From Escherichia coli (lineage in GTDB: Bacteria; Pseudomonadota; Gammaproteobacteria; Enterobacterales; Enterobacteriaceae), in NCBI RefSeq assembly GCF_044324875.1, contig NZ_CP172185.1: a stretch of 64,000 nucleotides of DNA; one strand, 5' to 3'. The translations under genes were made by a program, and so were the position numbers. Positions within the stretch are counted from its first letter, which is position 1; each line of letters begins with the position of its first letter. The notes beneath the pieces were generated by a model, which worked only from the letters and a program-made list of their open reading frames with translations, made no database searches and was not told the DNA's origin. Positions 48,072 through 59,479 of the stretch are shown one piece after another.

Positions 48072-49064
48072 ATGAGTCAGAATACGCTGAAAGTTCATGA
48101 TTTAAATGAAGACGCGGAATTTGATGAGAACGGAGTTGAGGTTTTTGACGAGAAAGCCTTAGTTGAAGAGGAACCCAGTGATAACGATTTGGCTGAAGAG
48201 GAGCTGTTATCGCAAGGGGCCACACAGCGTGTGTTGGACGCGACTCAGCTTTACCTTGGTGAGATTGGTTATTCGCCACTGTTAACGGCCGAAGAAGAAG
48301 TTTATTTCGCGCGTCGCGCACTGCGTGGAGATGTCGCTTCACGTCGCCGGATGATTGAAAGTAACCTGCGTCTGGTCGTGAAGATTGCCCGCCGTTATGG
48401 CAATCGTGGTCTGGCGCTGTTGGACCTGATCGAAGAGGGCAACCTGGGGCTGATCCGCGCGGTAGAGAAGTTTGACCCGGAACGTGGTTTCCGCTTCTCA
48501 ACATACGCAACCTGGTGGATCCGCCAGACGATCGAACGGGCGATTATGAACCAAACCCGTACTATTCGTTTGCCGATTCACATCGTAAAGGAGCTGAACG
48601 TTTACCTGCGAACCGCACGCGAGTTGTCCCATAAACTGGACCACGAACCAAGTGCGGAAGAGATCGCAGAGCAACTGGATAAGCCAGTTGATGACGTCAG
48701 CCGTATGCTTCGTCTTAACGAGCGCATTACCTCGGTAGACACCCCGCTGGGTGGTGATTCCGAAAAAGCGTTGCTGGACATCCTGGCCGATGAAAAAGAG
48801 AACGGTCCGGAAGATACCACGCAAGATGACGATATGAAGCAGAGCATCGTCAAATGGCTGTTCGAGCTGAACGCCAAACAGCGTGAAGTGCTGGCACGTC
48901 GATTCGGTTTGCTGGGGTACGAAGCGGCAACACTGGAAGATGTAGGTCGTGAAATTGGCCTCACCCGTGAACGTGTTCGCCAGATTCAGGTTGAAGGCCT
49001 GCGCCGTTTGCGCGAAATCCTGCAAACGCAGGGGCTGAATATCGAAGCGCTGTTCCGCGAGTAA
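48072..49064 (+). CDS. rpoS: RNA polymerase sigma factor RpoS
   Basis: 330 aa; sigma-70 family regions 2-4. Confidence 0.97.
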
Positions 49065-49738: not shown

Positions 49739-50332
49739 ATGAGACTGATCGTCGGGATGACAGGGGCTACCGGTGCGCCTCTTGGGGTGGCATTACTGCA
49801 AGCGCTGCGGGAGATGCCGAATGTCGAGACTCATCTGGTGATGTCGAAGTGGGCGAAAACCACCATTGAACTGGAAACGCCTTACAGCGCTCGCGATGTT
49901 GCTGCCCTCGCAGACTTCAGTCATAACCCGGCGGATCAGGCGGCGACCATCTCCTCAGGTTCCTTTCGTACCGACGGCATGATCGTTATTCCGTGCAGTA
50001 TGAAAACGCTCGCCGGTATCCGTGCCGGTTACGCCGATGGCCTGGTAGGGCGCGCGGCGGACGTCGTGCTCAAAGAAGGCCGCAAACTAGTGCTGGTGCC
50101 GCGTGAAATGCCGCTTAGCACCATCCATCTCGAAAATATGCTCGCACTTTCACGCATGGGCGTGGCGATGGTGCCGCCGATGCCTGCCTTTTATAACCAT
50201 CCCGAAACGGTAGATGACATTGTCCACCACGTGGTAGCCCGCGTGCTGGATCAATTTGGCCTCGAACATCCTCACGCCAGGCGCTGGCAAGGATTGCCGC
50301 AGGCCCGGAATTTTTCTCAGGAGAATGAATAA
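49739..50332 (+). CDS. UbiX/Pad1-family flavin prenyltransferase (decarboxylase B subunit)
   Basis: 197 aa; MRLIVGMTGATGAP flavoprotein N-terminus. Confidence 0.88.
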   Translation: MRLIVGMTGATGAPLGVALLQALREMPNVETHLVMSKWAKTTIELETPYSARDVAALADFSHNPADQAATISSGSFRTDGMIVIPCSMKTLAGIRAGYADGLVGRAADVVLKEGRKLVLVPREMPLSTIHLENMLALSRMGVAMVPPMPAFYNHPETVDDIVHHVVARVLDQFGLEHPHARRWQGLPQARNFSQENE

Positions 50333-51759
50333 TGGCATTTGATGATTTACGCAGCTTTTTACAGGCGCTTGATGACCACGGCCAGTTACTGAAAATCAGC
50401 GAAGAGGTGAACGCGGAACCGGATCTGGCAGCCGCTGCCAACGCCACCGGACGTATCGGCGATGGTGCACCGGCGCTGTGGTTTGACAATATTCGCGGCT
50501 TTATCGATGCCCGCGTTGCAATGAACACCATCGGTTCCTGGCAGAACCACGCGATTTCCCTCGGCCTGCCGCCAAACACCCCGGTTAAAAAACAGATTGA
50601 TGAGTTTATCCGCCGCTGGGATAACTTCCCCATTGCCCCGGAGCGCCGCGCCAATCCAGCCTGGGCGCAGAACACCGTCGATGGCGACGAGATCAATTTG
50701 TTCGATATCCTGCCACTGTTTCGTTTAAACGACGGTGATGGCGGTTTCTATCTCGACAAAGCCTGCGTAGTTTCCCGCGATCCGCTCGACCCGGATAACT
50801 TCGGCAAGCAGAACGTCGGCATCTACCGCATGGAAGTGAAGGGCAAGCGTAAGCTCGGCCTGCAACCGGTGCCGATGCACGATATCGCTCTGCATCTGCA
50901 TAAAGCGGAAGAACGCGGTGAAGATCTGCCGATTGCGATCACACTCGGTAACGATCCGATCATCACCCTGATGGGGGCCACGCCGCTGAAATACGATCAG
51001 TCTGAGTACGAAATGGCGGGCGCGCTGCGCGAAAGCCCGTACCCGATCGCCACCGCCCCGCTGACCGGTTTTGATGTGCCGTGGGGTTCAGAAGTGATCC
51101 TCGAAGGGGTCATCGAAAGCCGTAAACGCGAAATCGAAGGGCCGTTCGGTGAGTTTACCGGCCACTACTCCGGCGGGCGTAACATGACCGTGGTGCGTAT
51201 CGATAAAGTCTCTTACCGTACCAAACCGATTTTCGAATCGCTCTATCTTGGTATGCCGTGGACCGAAATCGACTACCTGATGGGGCCTGCCACCTGCGTG
51301 CCGCTGTATCAGCAACTGAAAGCCGAGTTCCCGGAAGTGCAGGCGGTAAACGCCATGTACACCCACGGCCTGTTGGCGATTATCTCCACCAAAAAACGCT
51401 ACGGTGGCTTTGCCCGCGCGGTGGGCCTGCGTGCGATGACCACGCCGCACGGTCTGGGCTACGTGAAGATGGTGATTATGGTCGATGAAGACGTTGATCC
51501 GTTCAACCTGCCGCAGGTGATGTGGGCGCTCTCTTCGAAAGTGAACCCGGCAGGGGATTTGGTGCAGTTGCCGAATATGTCCGTGCTGGAACTCGACCCC
51601 GGCTCAAGCCCGGCCGGTATCACCGACAAGCTGATTATCGACGCTACCACGCCTGTCGCCCCGGACAACCGTGGTCACTACAGCCAGCCGGTGGTGGATT
51701 TACCGGAAACCAAAGCCTGGGCTGAAAAACTGACCGCTATGCTGGCCGCACGTCAATAA
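50332..51759 (+). CDS. UbiD-family (de)carboxylase (C subunit)
   Basis: 475 aa; start overlaps upstream stop (TAATG). Confidence 0.88.
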   Translation: MAFDDLRSFLQALDDHGQLLKISEEVNAEPDLAAAANATGRIGDGAPALWFDNIRGFIDARVAMNTIGSWQNHAISLGLPPNTPVKKQIDEFIRRWDNFPIAPERRANPAWAQNTVDGDEINLFDILPLFRLNDGDGGFYLDKACVVSRDPLDPDNFGKQNVGIYRMEVKGKRKLGLQPVPMHDIALHLHKAEERGEDLPIAITLGNDPIITLMGATPLKYDQSEYEMAGALRESPYPIATAPLTGFDVPWGSEVILEGVIESRKREIEGPFGEFTGHYSGGRNMTVVRIDKVSYRTKPIFESLYLGMPWTEIDYLMGPATCVPLYQQLKAEFPEVQAVNAMYTHGLLAIISTKKRYGGFARAVGLRAMTTPHGLGYVKMVIMVDEDVDPFNLPQVMWALSSKVNPAGDLVQLPNMSVLELDPGSSPAGITDKLIIDATTPVAPDNRGHYSQPVVDLPETKAWAEKLTAMLAARQ

Positions 51760-51769
51760 GGAGAACAAG

Positions 51770-52006
51770 ATGATTTGTCCACGTTGTGCTGATGAACAGA
51801 TTGAAGTGATGGCGAAATCGCCGGTAAAAGATGTCTGGACGGTCTACCAGTGCCAGCATTGCCTCTATACCTAGCGCGATACCGAACCGCTACGTCGCAC
51901 CAGCCGCGAACATTATCCCGAAGCGTTCCGCATGACGCAGAAAGATATTGATGACGCGCCGATGGTGCCGAGCATCCCGCCGCTGCTGGCGGCAGATAAG
52001 CGTTAA
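51770..52006 (+). pseudogene. Decarboxylase small (D) subunit-like ORF interrupted by in-frame amber codon
   Basis: ATG 51770 (SD GGAGAA upstream) opens a 78-codon frame MICPRCADEQ..CLYT * RDTEPLRRTSREHYPEAF..LLAADKR with TAG at 51872..51874; Cys-x2-Cys..Cys-x2-Cys zinc-ribbon pattern. Confidence 0.55.
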
Positions 52007-52015
52007 ATAAAAAAT

Positions 52016-52043
52016 GCCGGGTAGAGGCTTTGCTTTACCCGGC
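52016..52043. terminator. Bidirectional terminator hairpin (GCCGGGTA..TACCCGGC) between decarboxylase module and pphB
   Basis: Inverted repeat with A6 upstream (U-run for the minus-strand transcript) and T-rich downstream. Confidence 0.6.
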
Positions 52044-52047
52044 CTCA

Positions 52048-52704
52048 TTACTTTATTTTATAAAATGACAGCCGCCCGCTTTTCGGCGATCCGGTATCAA
52101 TATAAACCTGATTGGCAAATGTCTGGATATTTGTAAACATCATATGCCCGAAGATAAAACAGTCGGCACCGTTTATTTCTTTTAACTCGCCTTTGAGTGA
52201 TTTCTGCACGCGATCAACAGGCCAGAGTACCTCTCTTTCCGCTACTTCCTTGCCAAACTGATATTCATCACCCGGATAATCTGCATGTGCGATAACATAT
52301 TTTATAATATCGTTGGTGATTTCTATAATATGCGGAAGATGATGAAAGCGAAGCAACAGGTCTATTGCTTCTTTTTGTTCTGAATCATTTAACTCAAAGA
52401 ACCAGTCACCGCCACTGGCAAGCCACATATTGCCATCGCCAGTCGCGAAGGCATCAAGCGCCATTGCCTCGTGGTTGCCTTTAACCGATGTAAACCAGGG
52501 CTGGTTTAACAGGCGTAGCACGTTAAGACTATCCGGCCCACGATCAATATTATCGCCTACGGAAATAAGTAAGTCAGTTTCGGGGCAAAAAGAGAGTTGG
52601 TGTAAGCGGGATTGTAATAATTGATAATCGCCATGAATATCACCAACGGCCCATATATGGCGATAATTAAATGATTCTATTTTGTGATAGCGAATAGATG
52701 GCAT
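52048..52704 (-). CDS. pphB: Serine/threonine protein phosphatase 2
   Basis: ORF 52048..52716; start set at MPSIRYHK; metallophosphatase motifs GDIHG, GDNIDRG, GNHE. Confidence 0.88.
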   Translation of the reverse strand: MPSIRYHKIESFNYRHIWAVGDIHGDYQLLQSRLHQLSFCPETDLLISVGDNIDRGPDSLNVLRLLNQPWFTSVKGNHEAMALDAFATGDGNMWLASGGDWFFELNDSEQKEAIDLLLRFHHLPHIIEITNDIIKYVIAHADYPGDEYQFGKEVAEREVLWPVDRVQKSLKGELKEINGADCFIFGHMMFTNIQTFANQVYIDTGSPKSGRLSFYKIK

Positions 52705-52728
52705 TAATTTGAGCATTTTGGTTTGGAG

Positions 52729-53592
52729 TTAGTCTATTTTTTTTGAAATAATGGCGTTGATCTGTTTATCAGTAAATTGACCTTGGGCTTTGGCTTTATT
52801 TAACCAGAGCAACGCTTCTTCTTTATTTATGCCATTTCCATCAAGCCCCCAGGCATAAATTTGTCCTAAAGTAATTTGTGCAATAGGTAAGTTTTGAGTA
52901 GCAGCTTTCTCAAACCAGTATTTAGCCTGTCGTATATCTTTGGGAACGCCCTGACCATTAAAAAAAAGTGTCCCATAATTATATTGGCCGAGTCGCTGAC
53001 CCTTTTCTGCCGCTATTTTTAAGTGAGGGATAGCTTCAGCATACTTATTCTCTTGAATTCCGATAATCCCTAAGTTTGCATGTGCAATAGGATTGTCCTT
53101 CTGTACTGCTTTCTGAAGCCAATACTTGGCTTTGTTAATGTTTTGGAATTCCTGTGGGCCAAATTGATAAATATTCGCACAGTTTATTTGAGCTTGTTCA
53201 TTCCCTTTTTCTGCCGCTTTCTCATACCAGTATATCGCAATACGATAGTTAGGCCCCGTATTATCATATCCGTAATGATAAATCTGTCCTAAGTAAAATT
53301 CAGCTTCATCATAATTTTGCTTTGCTGCAAGGTTGAGCCAATAAAATGCTTTGTTTATATCCTTCACTGAAGGACTTTCAGATAGACCATTCAGGTATAT
53401 GAGTCCCATCACCGTTTGTGAGGCTTTATCGCCATGTTGAGCCTTGGCAATGATATCCTGCAGTTTATTTCGTGATTCCTTCGTAATATTATTTAATACT
53501 TGCTCGGGAATATCAAAATGTGAAGGGGTATCTTCGGCGCCTATTGCAGTGGCGCTAATTATTAAAATTATTGATGCAATCGTTATTCTCAT
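52729..53592 (-). CDS. Sel1-repeat (TPR-like) secreted protein
   Basis: 287 aa; signal peptide; repeated Sel1-like units (LGxxYxxG..A..WYxKAA); gene is visibly AT-rich. Confidence 0.75.
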   Translation of the reverse strand: MRITIASIILIISATAIGAEDTPSHFDIPEQVLNNITKESRNKLQDIIAKAQHGDKASQTVMGLIYLNGLSESPSVKDINKAFYWLNLAAKQNYDEAEFYLGQIYHYGYDNTGPNYRIAIYWYEKAAEKGNEQAQINCANIYQFGPQEFQNINKAKYWLQKAVQKDNPIAHANLGIIGIQENKYAEAIPHLKIAAEKGQRLGQYNYGTLFFNGQGVPKDIRQAKYWFEKAATQNLPIAQITLGQIYAWGLDGNGINKEEALLWLNKAKAQGQFTDKQINAIISKKID

Positions 53593-53696
53593 TTTTTTCT
53601 TGAATGTTTTGTTCTTAATAGTGTTTATTTTACTCCTTTTTTATCTATCGGATAAGAGATATATGAGCCCCGAAGTTTAATCGGGGCTCATTAATA

Positions 53697-56258
53697 TTAT
53701 ACCAGACTCTTCAACCGATAAATCCACTCCAGCGCCTGGCGCGGAGTGAGTGAATCCGGGTCGAGATTTTCCAGCGCTTCCACCGCGGGCGAGGTTTCTT
53801 CCGGCACTGAAAGCAGCGACATCTGCGTGCCATCGACCTGTGTCGCGGCGGCATTCGGCGAAATGCTCTCCAGCTCGCGCAGTTTTTGCCGCGCACGCTT
53901 GATCACCTCTTTCGGCACACCTGCCAGTGCAGCAACCGCCAGGCCGTAGCTTTTGCTCGCCGCGCCATCCTGCACGCTGTGCATAAAGGCAATGGTGTCG
54001 CCGTGCTCCAGTGCATCGAGATGCACGTTGGCGACGCCTTCCATTTTCTCCGGTAACTGGGTCAGCTCGAAATAGTGGGTAGCAAACAACGTCAACGCTT
54101 TAATCTTATTCGCCAGATTTTCCGCGCACGCCCACGCCAGCGACAGACCATCGTAAGTGGACGTCCCGCGCCCAATCTCATCCATCAGCACCAGACTGTA
54201 CTCGGTGGCGTTATGCAGAATATTGGCGGTTTCGGTCATCTCCACCATAAAGGTTGAACGCCCGGATGCCAGATCATCCGCTGCTCCTACGCGCGTGAAG
54301 ATACGGTCGATCGGCCCAATCTCGACTTTTTGCGCCGGTACGTAGCTGCCGATATACGCCATCAGCGCAATCAACGCGGTCTGGCGCATATAGGTACTTT
54401 TACCGCCCATATTCGGACCGGTAATGATCAACATGCGACGCTGCGGCGACAGGTTCAGCGGGTTGGCGATAAATGGCTCGTTCAGTACCTGTTCAACCAC
54501 CGGATGGCGGCCTTCGGTGATGCGAATACCCGGTTTATCAATGAAGGTCGGGCAGGTGTAGTTCAGGGTATAGGCCCGTTCCGCCAGGTTCACCAGCACG
54601 TCGAGTTCCGCTAGCGCGCTCGCGCTCTGTTGCAACGCTTCCAGATGCGGCAACAGCAGGTCGAACAACTCTTCATAAAGCTGTTTTTCCAGTGCCAGTG
54701 CTTTGCCTTTTGAAGTGAGAACTTTGTCTTCGTACTCTTTTAGCTCTGGAATAATGTAGCGCTCGGCGTTTTTCAGCGTCTGGCGACGCATGTAATTGAT
54801 GGGTGCCAGATGGCTTTGTCCACGGCTGATCTGAATGTAATAACCATGAACCGCGTTAAAGCCGACTTTCAGCGTGTCCAGGCCAGTACGTTCACGCTCG
54901 CGGACTTCCAGACGCTCCAGATAATCGGTCGCGCCGTCAGCCAGCGCGCGCCACTCATCCAGCTCTTCGTTATAGCCCGATGCGATAACACCACCGTCGC
55001 GTACCAGCACTGGCGGTGTTTCGATGATTGCCCGCTCCAGCAGATCGCGCAGCTCGGCAAACTCGCCCATTTTTTCACGCAGCGCCTGTACCGGAGCGCT
55101 ATCGACATTTTCTAATTGCGCACGCAGCTCCGGCAATTGCTGGAAAGCGTGACGCATACGGGCCAGATCGCGCGGGCGAGCAGTTCGTAAAGCCAGACGC
55201 GCCAGAATACGTTCCAGGTCTCCGACCTGACGCAGCACCGGCTGTAGCCCGGCGGTGAAATCCTGCAATGCGCCAATAGTTTGCTGGCGCTCAAGTAACA
55301 CGCGGGTATCGCGCACTGGCATATGCAGCCAGCGTTTCAGCATACGACTACCCATCGGCGTTACAGTGCAGTCGAGCACTGAAGCCAGCGTATTTTCCGC
55401 ACCGCCCGCCAGGTTCTGGGTAATTTCCAGGTTACGACGCGTCGCGGAATCCATAATGATGCTGTCCTGCTCACGTTCCATAGTGATAGAACGAATATGC
55501 GGCAGAGTCGTACGTTGGGTATCTTTCGCATACTGCAACAGACAACCGGCAGCACAAAGTCCGCGCGGCGCGTTCTCGACGCCAAAACCGACCAGATCGC
55601 GGGTGCCAAATTGCAGATTCAACTGCTGGCGCGCGGTGTCGATTTCAAACTCCCACAGCGGACGACGGCGCAGACCGCGACGACCTTCAATCAGCGACAT
55701 CTCAGCAAAATCTTCTGCATATAGCAGTTCCGCCGGATTAGTGCGTTGCAGTTCTGCCGCCATCGTTTCCCGGTCAGCCGGTTCGCTCAGGCGAAAACGA
55801 CCGGAACTGATATCCAGCGTCGCGTAGCCGAAACCTTTACTGTCCTGCCAGATAGCCGCCAGCAGATTGTCCTGGCGCTCTTGTAACAGGGCTTCATCGC
55901 TGATGGTGCCTGGCGTAACGATACGCACAACTTTGCGCTCAACTGGACCTTTGCTGGTCGCCGGATCGCCAATTTGTTCGCAGATGGCAACGGACTCGCC
56001 CTGATTCACCAGTTTGGCGAGGTAGTTTTCCACCGCATGGTAGGGGATCCCCGCCATCGGGATCGGCTCTCCCGCCGAAGCACCGCGTTTGGTCAGTGAA
56101 ATATCCAGCAGTTGCGACGCGCGTTTTGCGTCGTCATAAAACAGTTCATAAAAATCACCCATCCGGTAAAACAGCAGGATCTCGGGATGCTGGGCTTTCA
56201 GCTTGAGATATTGCTGCATCATGGGCGTATGGGCATCGAAATTTTCTATTGCACTCAT
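53697..56258 (-). CDS. mutS: DNA mismatch repair protein MutS
   Basis: 853 aa; Walker [10 protein letters not shown]. Confidence 0.97.
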
Positions 56259-56504
56259 GGGGTTATGTCCGGTTCCCTGATATTAAATGGGGTGTGATGG
56301 TTTTTATTTTCGTTGTAATCACATAAGGCGCACATGATACCGGAGTTAATCATTTCAGGGGAAGAAGCGAACGGCGAGTTCTTGATGGTGATTCCGGGAA
56401 AGATGCTGTTTTGCAGCTTTTGCGTGATGCTTATGAAGCAAGTACGCAAAATTGTATCGGTTGGCTAACCCTTCTTCTTTAGAGTCATAGTGCCCTTTAA
56501 GATT

Positions 56505-56527
56505 AAGTTGTAATATAAATGCATCTT
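56505..56527. promoter_or_regulatory. Candidate NsrR operator (AAGTTGTAATA-T-AAATGCATCTT) upstream of ygbA
   Basis: Right half matches the NsrR half-site AAATGCATCTT exactly, left half 8/11; 18 bp upstream of the ygbA ATG. Confidence 0.5.
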
Positions 56528-56544
56528 AATGAGATGGAGGCAGC

Positions 56545-56889
56545 ATGTCCGGCAAGCGTATCTCTCGTGAAAAACTGACGATTAAAAAAATGATCGATCT
56601 TTATCAAGCGAAATGCCCGCAGGCGTCAGCGGAGCCGGAGCATTATGAGGCGTTGTTTACTTACGCGCAAAAGCGGCTGGATAAATGTGTGTTCGGCGAA
56701 GAGAAACCAGCCTGTAAGCAGTGTCCGGTGCACTGTTACCAGCCTGCAAAGCGTGAAGAGATGAAACAGATTATGCGTTGGGCTGGGCCGCGAATGCTGT
56801 GGCGTCATCCGATCTTAACCGTGCGTCATCTCATCGATGACAAGCGTCCGGTGCCGGAGTTGCCAGAAAAATATCGTCCAAAGAAATAA
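56545..56889 (+). CDS. ygbA: Nitrosative-stress-induced protein YgbA
   Basis: 114 aa, Cys-rich; RBS GGAGG; position next to mutS. Confidence 0.85.
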   Translation: MSGKRISREKLTIKKMIDLYQAKCPQASAEPEHYEALFTYAQKRLDKCVFGEEKPACKQCPVHCYQPAKREEMKQIMRWAGPRMLWRHPILTVRHLIDDKRPVPELPEKYRPKK

Positions 56890-56927
56890 ATCTGCCGGAG
56901 AGCCATACTCTCCGGCAAATAAGGCGC

Positions 56928-57356
56928 TTACGCTTTGGTGGCAATCAGGATGGCTGATGCTTTGATCAATGCAATAACGCGCGAGCCAGTGGTGAGTTTC
57001 ATTTCATCCTGACTTTCATTTGTTACCACTGCCACAATTTCAAAACCCGCATCCGTTTTGATATGGACAGTGGCGTTCACTGCTCCTTCGGTGATTGTCG
57101 ACACGCTGCCAGCAAACTGGTTGCGAGCAGAGAATTTCAGTCCACAGTCTTCCGTTGCCAGCGTTACCCACGGGGCTTTAATCAGGGCAATCGCTTCTTT
57201 CCCTTTCGCCAGACCCAGCGCTTGCTGGCTGCTGTGAGTCACAATTGCCACCAGCTTTGCACCACCTGCCAGCGTCAGTTCTACTTCATCATTCACAGCG
57301 CCCATTGCTACTGCGCTAACTGTTCCGGTTAATTGATTTCTTGCTGAAACTGCCAT
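56928..57356 (-). CDS. Molybdate-binding Mop protein (tandem TOBE domains)
   Basis: ORF 56928..57395; start set at ATG 57356 (MAVSARNQLTGTVS) after AAGGAGG; two repeated TOBE units (ARNQL/F.G.V..I..GAVN..V). Confidence 0.8.
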   Translation of the reverse strand: MAVSARNQLTGTVSAVAMGAVNDEVELTLAGGAKLVAIVTHSSQQALGLAKGKEAIALIKAPWVTLATEDCGLKFSARNQFAGSVSTITEGAVNATVHIKTDAGFEIVAVVTNESQDEMKLTTGSRVIALIKASAILIATKA

Positions 57357-57400
57357 ACTGCCTCCTTTCATTGAATGTTGATCGAGTATAACCACATCTG

Positions 57401-59479
57401 TTAAATCAATGCCGATTTATCAATTCCCAGTCGCTTCATCCGTGACAGCAGAGTCGTGCGTTTCAGCCCCAGACGTTGCGCAGCGCCTTTAGGCCCGGCA
57501 ACCACGCCGTTGGTTTCTTTCAGCACGCGAACAATCAACTGATATTCATCTTCGCCCTCCTGGGCGACAACCGTTGCGGCAGGCGGCGTTTCAGGCTCCG
57601 GTAAAGCAATATCAGGCAATGACAGCTGCAGCACGTTGCCGCGTGTTAGCAATACCGCGCGCTCAATGACGTTTTCCAGTTCGCGTACGTTACCCGGCCA
57701 CTCCATGTTGCTCAAGGTGCGCAGCGTCTCGGCAGGAATGCTGTCGATATTGCGCCCCAGACGACGGGCAATTTTGAAGGTAAAGGCTTTCGCCAGCAGC
57801 GGAATATCTTCCGGACGCTCGCGTAGTGGCGGCAGGTGAATCGGGAATACGTTCAGGCGGTAATAGAGATCGCTACGGAACTCACGGTCGGCGACCATTT
57901 TTTTCAGATCGCGGTTAGTTGCGGCGATTAGACGCACGTCCGTCTGAATGATTTTGTTGCTGCCGAGACGTTCAAACTCCTGTTCCTGTAATACACGCAG
58001 CAACTTCGGCTGTAACTCCAGTGGCATATCGCCCACTTCGTCGAGGAACAGGGAGCTTTTATCCGCCAGTTCAAAACGACCGATACGCTGGGCGCTGGCA
58101 CCGGTAAAAGCCCCACGCTCATGACCAAACAGATCGCTCTCCAGCAATCCGGCAGGCATCGCCGCGCAGTTCATTTTGACCATGCGGCGATTATTACGCC
58201 CACTGAGATTATGGATAGCACGGGCAATCAGCTCTTTACCCGTGCCAGTTTCACCGAGGATCAGCACGGTACTGTCACTTTGCGCCACCATTTCAACTTG
58301 TTTAAGCACGCTGTACATGGCTTCGCTGCGGCCAATAATCTCGCCAAATTCACTATCAACATTGTTGAGCTGCTCGGTCAGGGCGAGGTTTTCATCAACC
58401 AGCCGTTCTTTCAGACGATGGATTTCCTGATAGGCGAGGGCGTTATCGACAGCGATTGCCACACGTTCGGCAATCTGGCGCAGTAAATTCAGATTGGTAG
58501 TGGTAAACACTTTCTCTTCGCATTGCGCCAGTTTCAGCACGCCCAGCATGGTGTCGCCAGACATCAGCGGTAACAGGCACAAGGTTTGAATCTGGTTGCC
58601 CCAGGTGTCGAACAACATGCGTTCATAGGGGGCTAAATCGTCCCGCTCGTGGAGATTAATCAGCAGCATCTCTTTGCTTTTGAACACGCGTTCGGTGAGG
58701 GTTCCGGCTTCATCGACTTCGCTCTGTTCGTGGGCGGGATGCTGTTTATCAAGATAGTGAGTGGAGTAGATGTTGAGTTTGTTTTTACGGTGGCTGCGTA
58801 AGACGATGCTGATATCGTCAATGTCGAAGTAGTAATGGATTTCTTTGGCGACTTCGCTGACCAGTTCGTCCATATCCAGGCGGGAAAGCACCGCGTTGGT
58901 AATGGCAACCAGGATGCGGAAGTTATCGCGCTCCCGGCATAACAACTCATAGTCGACATTATTGACGACGCGGCTCTGGATTTGTTCGGTGACGACAGAA
59001 ACGATCTGCGTAAATGTTTGCAGACGATTGAACTCTTTTTCGCTCCAGGGGCGATCGTCATAACGAATAAATTCACAGCCACCAAAAATATGCCCTTCCG
59101 CCGCCAGTGGCATCAGGCAATAGTGACCAAATTTGGGGTATAGCCCACCTGCGGCCAGCTGCGGCCAGGTTTCACAAAATTCTTCGTAACTGCAATGCAG
59201 CGTATCAGGGCGCGACAAAATGCTGCGTACCGGACCGTGTGCCAGAACAGTTTCGTCTTCATATTTAATGGGGGTGTCTTTTTCACGCGATGCGTAATAA
59301 GACGCACGTTGAGTCTGCGCTTGCCACAACACAATAGCCGCGTTGTCGGCGAGCGCAGAACGCTTTACCAGTTGCGAAAGAGCCTCACACAGCGAGGCCA
59401 GATCGGGCTGCTGCAATAGTGTCCGAGTGATGTCGAACAACCCTTGTTGTCCGAGATCACTCATCGGTGTATATGACAT
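57401..59479 (-). CDS. fhlA: Formate hydrogenlyase transcriptional activator FhlA (sigma54-dependent)
   Basis: ORF 57401..59515; start set at MSYTPMSDL (692 aa); GAF domains, AAA+ sigma54-interaction domain (GETGTGKE, GAFTGA), C-terminal HTH. Confidence 0.95.
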   Translation of the reverse strand: MSYTPMSDLGQQGLFDITRTLLQQPDLASLCEALSQLVKRSALADNAAIVLWQAQTQRASYYASREKDTPIKYEDETVLAHGPVRSILSRPDTLHCSYEEFCETWPQLAAGGLYPKFGHYCLMPLAAEGHIFGGCEFIRYDDRPWSEKEFNRLQTFTQIVSVVTEQIQSRVVNNVDYELLCRERDNFRILVAITNAVLSRLDMDELVSEVAKEIHYYFDIDDISIVLRSHRKNKLNIYSTHYLDKQHPAHEQSEVDEAGTLTERVFKSKEMLLINLHERDDLAPYERMLFDTWGNQIQTLCLLPLMSGDTMLGVLKLAQCEEKVFTTTNLNLLRQIAERVAIAVDNALAYQEIHRLKERLVDENLALTEQLNNVDSEFGEIIGRSEAMYSVLKQVEMVAQSDSTVLILGETGTGKELIARAIHNLSGRNNRRMVKMNCAAMPAGLLESDLFGHERGAFTGASAQRIGRFELADKSSLFLDEVGDMPLELQPKLLRVLQEQEFERLGSNKIIQTDVRLIAATNRDLKKMVADREFRSDLYYRLNVFPIHLPPLRERPEDIPLLAKAFTFKIARRLGRNIDSIPAETLRTLSNMEWPGNVRELENVIERAVLLTRGNVLQLSLPDIALPEPETPPAATVVAQEGEDEYQLIVRVLKETNGVVAGPKGAAQRLGLKRTTLLSRMKRLGIDKSALI

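Follow-up and report, generated by a model that had tools for sequence, protein, structure and literature searches.

The region between mutS and rpoS of Escherichia coli is mosaic and subject to horizontal gene transfer, with mutS itself included (PMC4209514), and mutS has been documented as recombining (PMC7232297). The polymorphisms known from this region comprise the K-12 ygbI-N segment, the O157-type 2.9-kb segment, the B2 2.1-kb insertion and the o454-nlpD patterns I-IV. The window studied here, by which we mean the whole stretch of 64,000 nucleotides that was analysed, covers this region (mutS at 53697..56258; rpoS at 48072..49064, located through the annotation of an ST69 genome and alignment), and our sliding identity analysis resolved it into mosaic blocks, which places it within the mutS-rpoS polymorphic region. 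Next to rpoS the window carries the O157-type ecdBCD/marR arrangement, as in the known polymorphisms. Whereas the polymorphisms described previously lie at the rpoS-proximal end (o454-nlpD), the one reported here is mutS-proximal and comprises the mutS tail, a gene for a Sel1-like-repeat (SLR) protein (hereafter sel1) and pphB. Our literature search on sel1 and on mutS-rpoS polymorphism found no description of a mutS-proximal sel1/pphB polymorphism, and the interest of the locus is mainly for E. coli population genomics, as a mutS-proximal polymorphism within a classic hot spot.

Solved SLR proteins of bacteria that share the α/α-solenoid of Sel1 include LceB (8SXQ) and LpnE (6DEH) of Legionella, three proteins of Oxalobacter formigenes (6OK3, 6ORK, 6UR7) and HcpC of Helicobacter (1OUV). 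LceB and LpnE are Dot/Icm-associated effectors. EsiB (c5321; PDB 4BWR) of the uropathogenic E. coli CFT073 resembles Sel1 in being accessory and in having a signal peptide followed by a superhelix of Sel1-like repeats, and it binds secretory IgA (SIgA) and dampens neutrophil activation (PMC3735183). It differs from Sel1 in its 11 repeats (467 residues in the crystallised chain, compared to approximately 7 repeats and 287 amino acids in Sel1), in a sequence identity of only ~29% and in its chromosomal locus. Orthology with EsiB was rejected, as Sel1 has neither 11 SLRs, nor a length of ~470-490 amino acids (PMC3735183), nor high identity, nor the same locus. The functional analogy that we favour is with ExoR, MotX, AlgK and MerG, which are Sec-exported Sel1-repeat proteins that bind a periplasmic partner. 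Sel1 belongs to none of these four families, its NCBIfam scores lying far below the respective cut-offs (MerG, 70.8 vs 350; MotX, 50.5 vs 330; AlgK, 46.9 vs 700; ExoR, 34.4 vs 450), and the likeness is that of the shared repeat only.

In our view the best explanation of the locus, and one that we regard as probable, is that an intact gene for a Sec-exported SLR protein, likely a periplasmic adaptor, was imported into this lineage by recombination. The gene is already annotated in RefSeq, where its product is named 'tetratricopeptide repeat protein' (WP_001223109.1), and it represents ordinary accessory-genome biology with no functional surprise. The features of the locus, in the direction of transcription, are as follows.

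53697..56258, minus strand: mutS, flanking gene
53697..53934, minus strand: 3' tail of mutS, of apparent donor (Pseudocitrobacter-like) ancestry, proposed left end of the import (identity comparison, SNP table)
53663..53691, minus strand: terminator-like hairpin of mutS (11-bp stem with 7 GC pairs, 7-nt loop)
53627..53632, minus strand: -10-like box, putative promoter for sel1, and likely for pphB as well (spacer alignment; TAAAAT here, TATAAT in other alleles)
53597..53605, minus strand: ATTCAAG(A/G)A motif, likely a weak ribosome-binding region (conserved columns, 5-13 nt upstream of the ATG)
53536..53592, minus strand: predicted Sec signal peptide, residues 1 to ~19, MRITIASIILIISATAIGA (hydropathy profile, sequence, orthologue alignment, AF2)
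52729..53592, minus strand: sel1 coding sequence, SLR protein (ORF, Pfam Sel1, AF2, Foldseek, dN/dS, comparison with strain 042)
52705..52728, minus strand: sel1-pphB spacer of 24 nt, no terminator-like site
52048..52704, minus strand: pphB (PrpB), PPP-family Ser/Thr phosphatase, a divergent allele that appears to travel with sel1 (NCBIfam PRK09968, 457 bits)

The ORF list of the window gives sel1 as an ATG-initiated frame of 287 amino acids (52729..53592, minus strand). Its 287 codons in DNA of 38% GC, together with a dN/dS of 0.19 (dS 0.21) against the orthologue of Pseudocitrobacter corydidari, show that the frame did not arise by chance; sel1 is a genuine gene under purifying selection comparable to that on pphB (dN/dS 0.11-0.12). 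Its protein matches WP_001223109.1 (E. coli 042 and ST69) at every residue, and the gene is one synonymous base apart from that of 042. The order found by the initial annotation, with sel1 downstream of mutS and upstream of pphB on one strand and after the mutS terminator hairpin, agrees with our positions, and the absence of the gene from K-12, which that annotation had stated, was confirmed, since a gene-free 105 bp separates mutS from pphB there.

The composition of sel1 is extreme for the window (GC 0.378, GC3 0.323), its GC3 being the minimum among the 38 ORFs of at least 250 amino acids (the runner-up has 0.434). The suggestion that it is more AT-rich than the flanking core genes holds against mutS (GC 0.561, GC3 0.623); pphB is itself AT-rich (GC 0.42), and is so in all E. 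coli examined, K-12 included. Homologues are equally AT-rich in the genera where sel1 appears native (GC 0.37-0.42), so the low GC is a property of the gene family and no mark of recent arrival. AT-richness alone is thus weak evidence for transfer, and the real evidence lies in the distribution of the gene and its donor-like flanks.

Among 5426 complete E. coli genomes, sel1 was present in 181 (~3%), each copy being at least 99% identical, and all 183 copies were chromosomal, with 0 on plasmids. Together with a closest relationship to Pseudocitrobacter, this restricted distribution bears out the horizontal acquisition that had been proposed from the composition; universal presence with host-like codon usage, which would speak for a resident gene, was looked for and is not what the genomes show. 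The carriers include an ST69 O15:H18 isolate from cerebrospinal fluid, strain 042 and one O169:H41 strain, and the sel1 block can conveniently serve to mark the sampled ST69 and 042 lineages. The whole 2.5-kb block around sel1 is contiguous in about 184 genomes; over these surrounding 2.5 kb no genome of the collection reaches 99% identity to the window, the best having 98.3%.

A search of 5.8 billion proteins returned three groups of relatives, namely the E. coli cluster, a P. corydidari protein with 92% identity, and a group with 50-55% identity of which several members are named Citrobacter. P. corydidari has the gene order mutS-sel1-pphB-ecdD-ecdC-ecdB-marR, and the same mutS-sel1-pphB-ecd order is found in the metagenome-assembled genome (MAG) of an uncultured Pseudocitrobacter, whose Sel1 is 91% identical at the amino acid level. 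Several Citrobacter have a Sel1 homologue (52-55%) directly after mutS, followed by a gene of 153-208 amino acids on the opposite strand which matches no Pfam family and is not pphB. A conserved partner gene of sel1 was accordingly rejected: this other gene takes the place of pphB in Citrobacter, and mutS is the only universal neighbour.

Our scan of 100,044 species-representative genomes detected only the Pseudocitrobacter MAG (91%) and Citrobacter werkmanii (52%), and a closer donor was absent from it. Compared to the window, the Pseudocitrobacter genomes share 93% identity over sel1, 90% over pphB and 93-95% over the mutS tail, and no donor with at least 99% identity was found. The divergence of the window tract from the two Pseudocitrobacter genomes (5-10%) is similar to that between these two. 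The present results suggest that the block of the window falls inside Pseudocitrobacter diversity. The donor lineage is thus identifiable as Pseudocitrobacter-like, and by these identities the donor itself was probably a third, unsampled member or a sister of Pseudocitrobacter. Between the same two genomes, those of the window and Pseudocitrobacter, dS is 0.21 for sel1 vs 0.79 for mutS.

The borders of the foreign ancestry lie within the neighbouring genes. The mutS tail (53697..53934) is 95.0% and 92.9% identical to the two Pseudocitrobacter genomes vs 85.7% to K-12, and the relation is reversed over the first 2300 bp of mutS (84.7% to Pseudocitrobacter vs 95.3% to K-12). According to our SNP table this left junction is staggered: the first donor-type site lies at 53931 in the window, at 53844 in 042 and at ~53700 in ST69. 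From ~52131 to 53700 the three are ~100% identical, both by sliding window and by site-by-site table, and at the right junction the window diverges from the other two below ~52130. The pphB gene follows the same pattern: between 52704 and ~52131 it is 100% identical to its copies in ST69 and 042, and 86-89% thereafter. PphB of the window has 85% amino acid identity to that of K-12, and at the nucleotide level its gene is at least 95% identical in 181 genomes only and 80-90% (~86%) identical in 5217. As a point against the import, it is only slightly nearer to Pseudocitrobacter (90%) than to some E. coli alleles (KFu014, 89%), and it looks mosaic; pphB alleles within E. coli differ by 9-16%. 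We found no integrase, IS or transposase ORFs in 50000..57500 and no flanking direct repeats around the tract. Insertion of a mobile element or genomic island was rejected, as there are no IS elements, integrases, flanking repeats or plasmid copies and the borders lie inside homologous genes.

The initial annotation had described sel1 as wedged between pphB and mutS, and this part must be refined, as the junctions indicate a replacement tract of ~1.8 kb (window ~52131..53934) rather than entry into an intact mutS-pphB junction. We propose that this tract, which covers the final ~235 bp of mutS, the spacer after it, sel1 and the larger part of pphB, came from a Pseudocitrobacter-like enterobacterium and replaced the resident segment by homologous recombination, for which the conserved mutS and pphB/ecd flanks would have served as anchors. 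Later recombination within E. coli would then have spread and trimmed the tract, so that its junctions are now staggered among the window, 042 and ST69; we infer the direction and the number of the transfer events from these alignments. The nested recombination junctions inside mutS fit a repeated exchange of mismatch-repair genes and their neighbours.

The position between mutS and pphB is also occupied by a second allele (type-2, the allele of the window being type-1), which encodes 284 amino acids, is 54% identical to the window Sel1 and is annotated in E. coli, Escherichia sp. and E. fergusonii. It fills the same mutS-pphB slot in 12 of the 5426 complete genomes, other than the carriers of type-1, and its right flank can be of the ecd type or of the K-12 type (ygbI-N); the pphB genes beside it represent still further alleles. 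Frameshifts are frequent in the type-2 allele, giving pieces of 170 and 87/119 amino acids. The slot is old and multi-allelic, with 'empty' the commonest state in E. coli, and Citrobacter, E. fergusonii and a few E. coli have other deeply diverged alleles in it. Apart from the terminator hairpin and a GTATAAT box, the 105-bp spacer of K-12 aligns with the flanks of neither sel1 allele; this alignment, in which hairpin and box are all that is shared, was also considered with respect to a clean deletion scar of sel1 in the K-12 spacer. As a separate observation, the occupancy of the slot in several genera and the promoter homology in K-12 are compatible with ancestral presence and widespread loss as well.

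If sel1-pphB were ancestral in Escherichia, Citrobacter and Pseudocitrobacter, most E. coli would have deleted sel1 and the lineage of the window would have kept it. This would account for a slot that is filled in Citrobacter, Pseudocitrobacter, E. fergusonii and the type-2 E. coli with both right-flank types, and for the hairpin and GTATAAT box common to K-12, where the box lies directly before pphB. We nevertheless consider such an origin most improbable, as mutS, 95% E. coli-like over most of its length, becomes 95% Pseudocitrobacter-like in its last ~235 bp, the dS of sel1 to Pseudocitrobacter lies far under the mutS background and the 181 carriers are so nearly identical. The slot may be old, yet the type-1 allele in E. 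coli appears to be an import.

Import by recombination leaves it to be asked what the gene does in its new host. Insertion of IS elements has split sel1 in three carriers (H84, H93 and H94), which together with the frequent frameshifts in the type-2 allele indicates that sel1 is dispensable. These disruptions, along with weak Shine-Dalgarno and -35 elements and the report that mutS is often horizontally replaced (PMC4209514), would fit a gene with no role in E. coli that hitch-hiked on a tract selected for other reasons, such as the pphB allele or mutS repair, and that is now in slow decay. Such a neutral passage is unlikely in our judgement, as full-length sel1 is kept in at least 176 of the 181 carriers (179 matches cover at least 80% of the gene), and the low dN/dS and the conservation over ~45% protein divergence in Citrobacter mark a functional family. 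The constraint on the sel1 family has mostly accumulated outside E. coli.

That the product is a Sel1-repeat protein with a signal peptide, as first annotated, was upheld by a Pfam Sel1 (PF08238) match of 135.7 bits (cut-off 30.7; E=2.8e-40), in which four stretches pass individually, and by the AF2 model, with export itself a Sec prediction. The N-terminus, MRITIASIILIISATAIGA-EDTP, is organised like a Sec signal peptide, with one basic residue in the n-region, ~14 hydrophobic residues in the h-region and small residues in the c-region; it contains no lipobox cysteine. A hydrophobic segment is present at the N-terminus of nine of the nine orthologues aligned, its sequence varying, and we infer from this that Sel1 is exported by Sec. 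The AF2 model, which was built on the orthologue alignment (pLDDT 87.4, pTM 0.79), leaves residues 1-24 disordered (pLDDT <50) and contains 14-15 helices, those between residues 38 and 283 forming ~7 pairs that correspond to Sel1-like repeats; the only repeats detected around sel1 are internal ones that reflect the same Sel1 periodicity of 108 and 204 nt. The model thus has the right-handed α/α solenoid of tandem antiparallel helix pairs by which SLR proteins are recognised. The top 13 Foldseek matches in the PDB are all SLR proteins (19-30% identity), with TM-scores of 0.6-0.7, normalised to the query, against solved bacterial SLR proteins, and the sequence search was concordant.

Segments conserved across the orthologues include QAQ[VI]NCANIYQFGP, DPIAHANLG and AAEKG..GQYNY. 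The mature protein has a single cysteine, the invariant C138. In Hcp proteins every repeat carries two cysteines joined by a disulfide bond, and with its one cysteine Sel1 was rejected as a Helicobacter cysteine-rich protein (Hcp). Its subfamily is uncharacterised, which makes Sel1 a new member of a repeat family that is itself very well known. To judge from other exported SLR proteins, Sel1 is most likely a periplasmic protein-binding adaptor, whose mature form of ~268 residues and ~7 helix pairs would hold a partner on the solenoid surface in the periplasm.

Among solved structures EsiB is the best match by sequence (E=2e-49) and rank 1 in Foldseek, UniRef gives the EsiB name to the P. corydidari orthologue, and the carriers include pathogenic lineages, with strain 042 and the ST69 isolate from cerebrospinal fluid. 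Sel1 might then reach the surface or the medium, bind a host molecule such as secretory IgA and aid extraintestinal or enteroaggregative virulence, a role that we regard as quite unlikely. The differences from EsiB set out above (29% identity, 7 rather than 11 repeats, another locus) indicate a match to the generic SLR consensus. The SIgA-binding peptide of EsiB, 244-VLFSQSAEQGNSIAQFR-260, which includes E251 (PMC3735183), is itself SLR-consensus-like and therefore not diagnostic, comparable 'AAEKGN' segments being found in the query. Moreover, the close homologues found were confined to Pseudocitrobacter and Citrobacter, where their chromosomal synteny is conserved, and no secretion system is encoded nearby.

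The SLR immunity proteins of type VI secretion systems (T6SS) also appear among the fold matches, with the solved PA5087, PA5086 and PA5088 of Pseudomonas aeruginosa, and as a predicted periplasmic SLR protein Sel1 could be an orphan immunity protein that neutralises a phospholipase- or VgrG-type effector, like P. aeruginosa PA5086-5088. One Citrobacter locus (L009) does have T6SS genes upstream of mutS. Those matches, however, come only at ranks 31-48 and share 13-15% identity, sel1 adjoins no effector, VgrG or PAAR gene in any of the Escherichia, Pseudocitrobacter and Citrobacter loci examined, and in L009 a Fic gene, another ORF and the whole of mutS separate the T6SS genes from sel1. We consider this role very improbable. 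As a class, T6SS SLR immunity proteins (PA5086-5088/Tli5b type; Klebsiella Sel1E type) were rejected for Sel1, as no effector (PLD or VgrG) adjoins it in the loci examined.

A role as periplasmic adaptor, which we prefer, raises the question of how sel1 relates to pphB. The gap between the two had been given as 13 bp; it is in fact 12 nt to the first in-frame ATG (52716) and 24 nt to the start (52704) given by RefSeq and by homology to K-12. A spacing of 22-24 nt is found in the window, 042, ST69, both Pseudocitrobacter genomes and the type-2 E. coli allele. No terminator-like site was found between sel1 and pphB, and the short spacer without a terminator suggests co-transcription, so that sel1 would probably be transcribed together with the cytoplasmic phosphatase gene as one unit from the conserved -10-like promoter.

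Co-transcription invites the idea of a conserved two-gene envelope-signalling unit, in which a periplasmic SLR adaptor, comparable to ExoR in its action on a sensor kinase, would be coupled to the cytoplasmic PPP phosphatase PphB/PrpB. A passage of PMC6610125 that cites Missiakas and Raina (1997) states that PphA/PrpA, the paralogue of PphB, positively modulates the CpxA/CpxR pathway, and by the same passage the 1997 study described PrpA and PrpB together. We hold such a unit to be very unlikely, and a periplasmic adaptor co-transcribed with pphB within the Cpx circuitry is likewise of low probability. Were sel1-pphB such a unit, K-12 and most E. coli would have lost its periplasmic half, and the deeply diverged alleles of sel1 and pphB would reflect diversifying or balancing selection and not only neutral introgression. 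Sel1 would gain in importance if it turned out to act together with PphB in signalling, or as a host-interaction factor of ExPEC/EAEC lineages.

The only match in an Rfam E-value scan of the spacers was a trpB-motif at 52005..52087, which is sub-threshold (26 bits vs 59, E=0.7) and was treated as chance, and a non-coding RNA in the spacers was rejected. Our alignment of eight mutS-sel1 spacers, which spans alleles only ~55% identical in protein, has invariant G-GTA-AAT-A columns with a GTA(T/A)AAT box ~35 nt 5' of the ATG; in K-12 the GTATAAT box aligns upstream of pphB, directly preceding that gene. A simple promoter scan did not call this -10-like box because its -35 element agrees at 3 of 6 positions only. 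The position of the ribosome-binding region reads AAGGA in Citrobacter vs AAGAA in the window. The mutS hairpin is orthologous in all haplotypes, K-12 included, and compensatory changes keep four of the ten consensus pairs across seven haplotypes.

The ecdBCD cluster of the window (49739..52006), which encodes a hydroxyarylic-acid decarboxylase, shares ~95% identity with its counterpart in Pseudocitrobacter, which makes the two as similar as E. coli strains are among themselves at this locus (95.9%). The genes are as follows:

49739..50332, ecdB
50332..51759, ecdC
~51770..52006, ecdD

For ecdC the identity to Pseudocitrobacter is 94.6-94.7% with a dS of 0.26; mutS, compared in the same genome pairs, shows ~85% identity and a dS of 0.79. 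These values suggest an exchange of ecdBCD itself between Escherichia and a Pseudocitrobacter-like lineage. The spacer between pphB and ecdD holds a weak Rfam match to the trpB ncRNA motif (52005..52087, minus strand; 26.4 bits, E = 0.7), which falls below the gathering score of 59 and is most likely due to chance.

On the other side of this spacer, pphB (52048..52704 in the window, and compared loci L001, L003, L004, L014 and L016) occurs in E. coli as at least four deeply diverged alleles, with 84-91% nucleotide identity among the allele classes, a divergence that far exceeds the usual diversity of core genes. The slot between mutS and pphB can be occupied by a second Sel1 allele, a 284-aa protein with 54% amino acid identity to the Sel1-repeat protein of the window, which is carried by 12 of the 5426 complete E. 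coli genomes as well as by Escherichia sp. and E. fergusonii, and which a frameshift breaks into two pieces in many assemblies. Its positions in the compared loci are:

6001..6854 in L011-L013
6001..6855 in L014-L016
6001..6855 in L017 (E. fergusonii)

The mutS body (53960..56258) has ~95% overall identity to K-12 (dS 0.26), and patches of 100-200 bp within it range from 89% to 100% identity against various E. coli strains. The mutS of the window is thus itself a mosaic, which fits the recombination that has been reported for this gene.

Upstream of mutS, two of the compared loci have a phage-type integrase gene, and the one from E. fergusonii also carries ThsA-Macro and ThsB-TIR (Thoeris-like) genes alongside it:

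3712..5169 in L005 (P. corydidari), integrase directly upstream of mutS
1721..3178 in L017 (E. fergusonii), integrase directly upstream of mutS

In both genomes, therefore, the fhlA-mutS side serves as a site of island integration. A further presence/absence polymorphism lies on this side of mutS, opposite to sel1:

56928..57356, minus strand, TOBE-domain gene between fhlA and ygbA

The window, ST69, 042 and KFu014 carry this gene, and K-12 and O55:H7 lack it.

Among the carriers of the block that contains sel1, three have it interrupted by IS elements (NZ_CP080260.1, NZ_CP119011.1 and NZ_CP063153.1), the types involved being ISKpn26-family IS5, ISVsa5-family IS4 and IS3; the insertion in NZ_CP080260.1 cuts sel1 in two.
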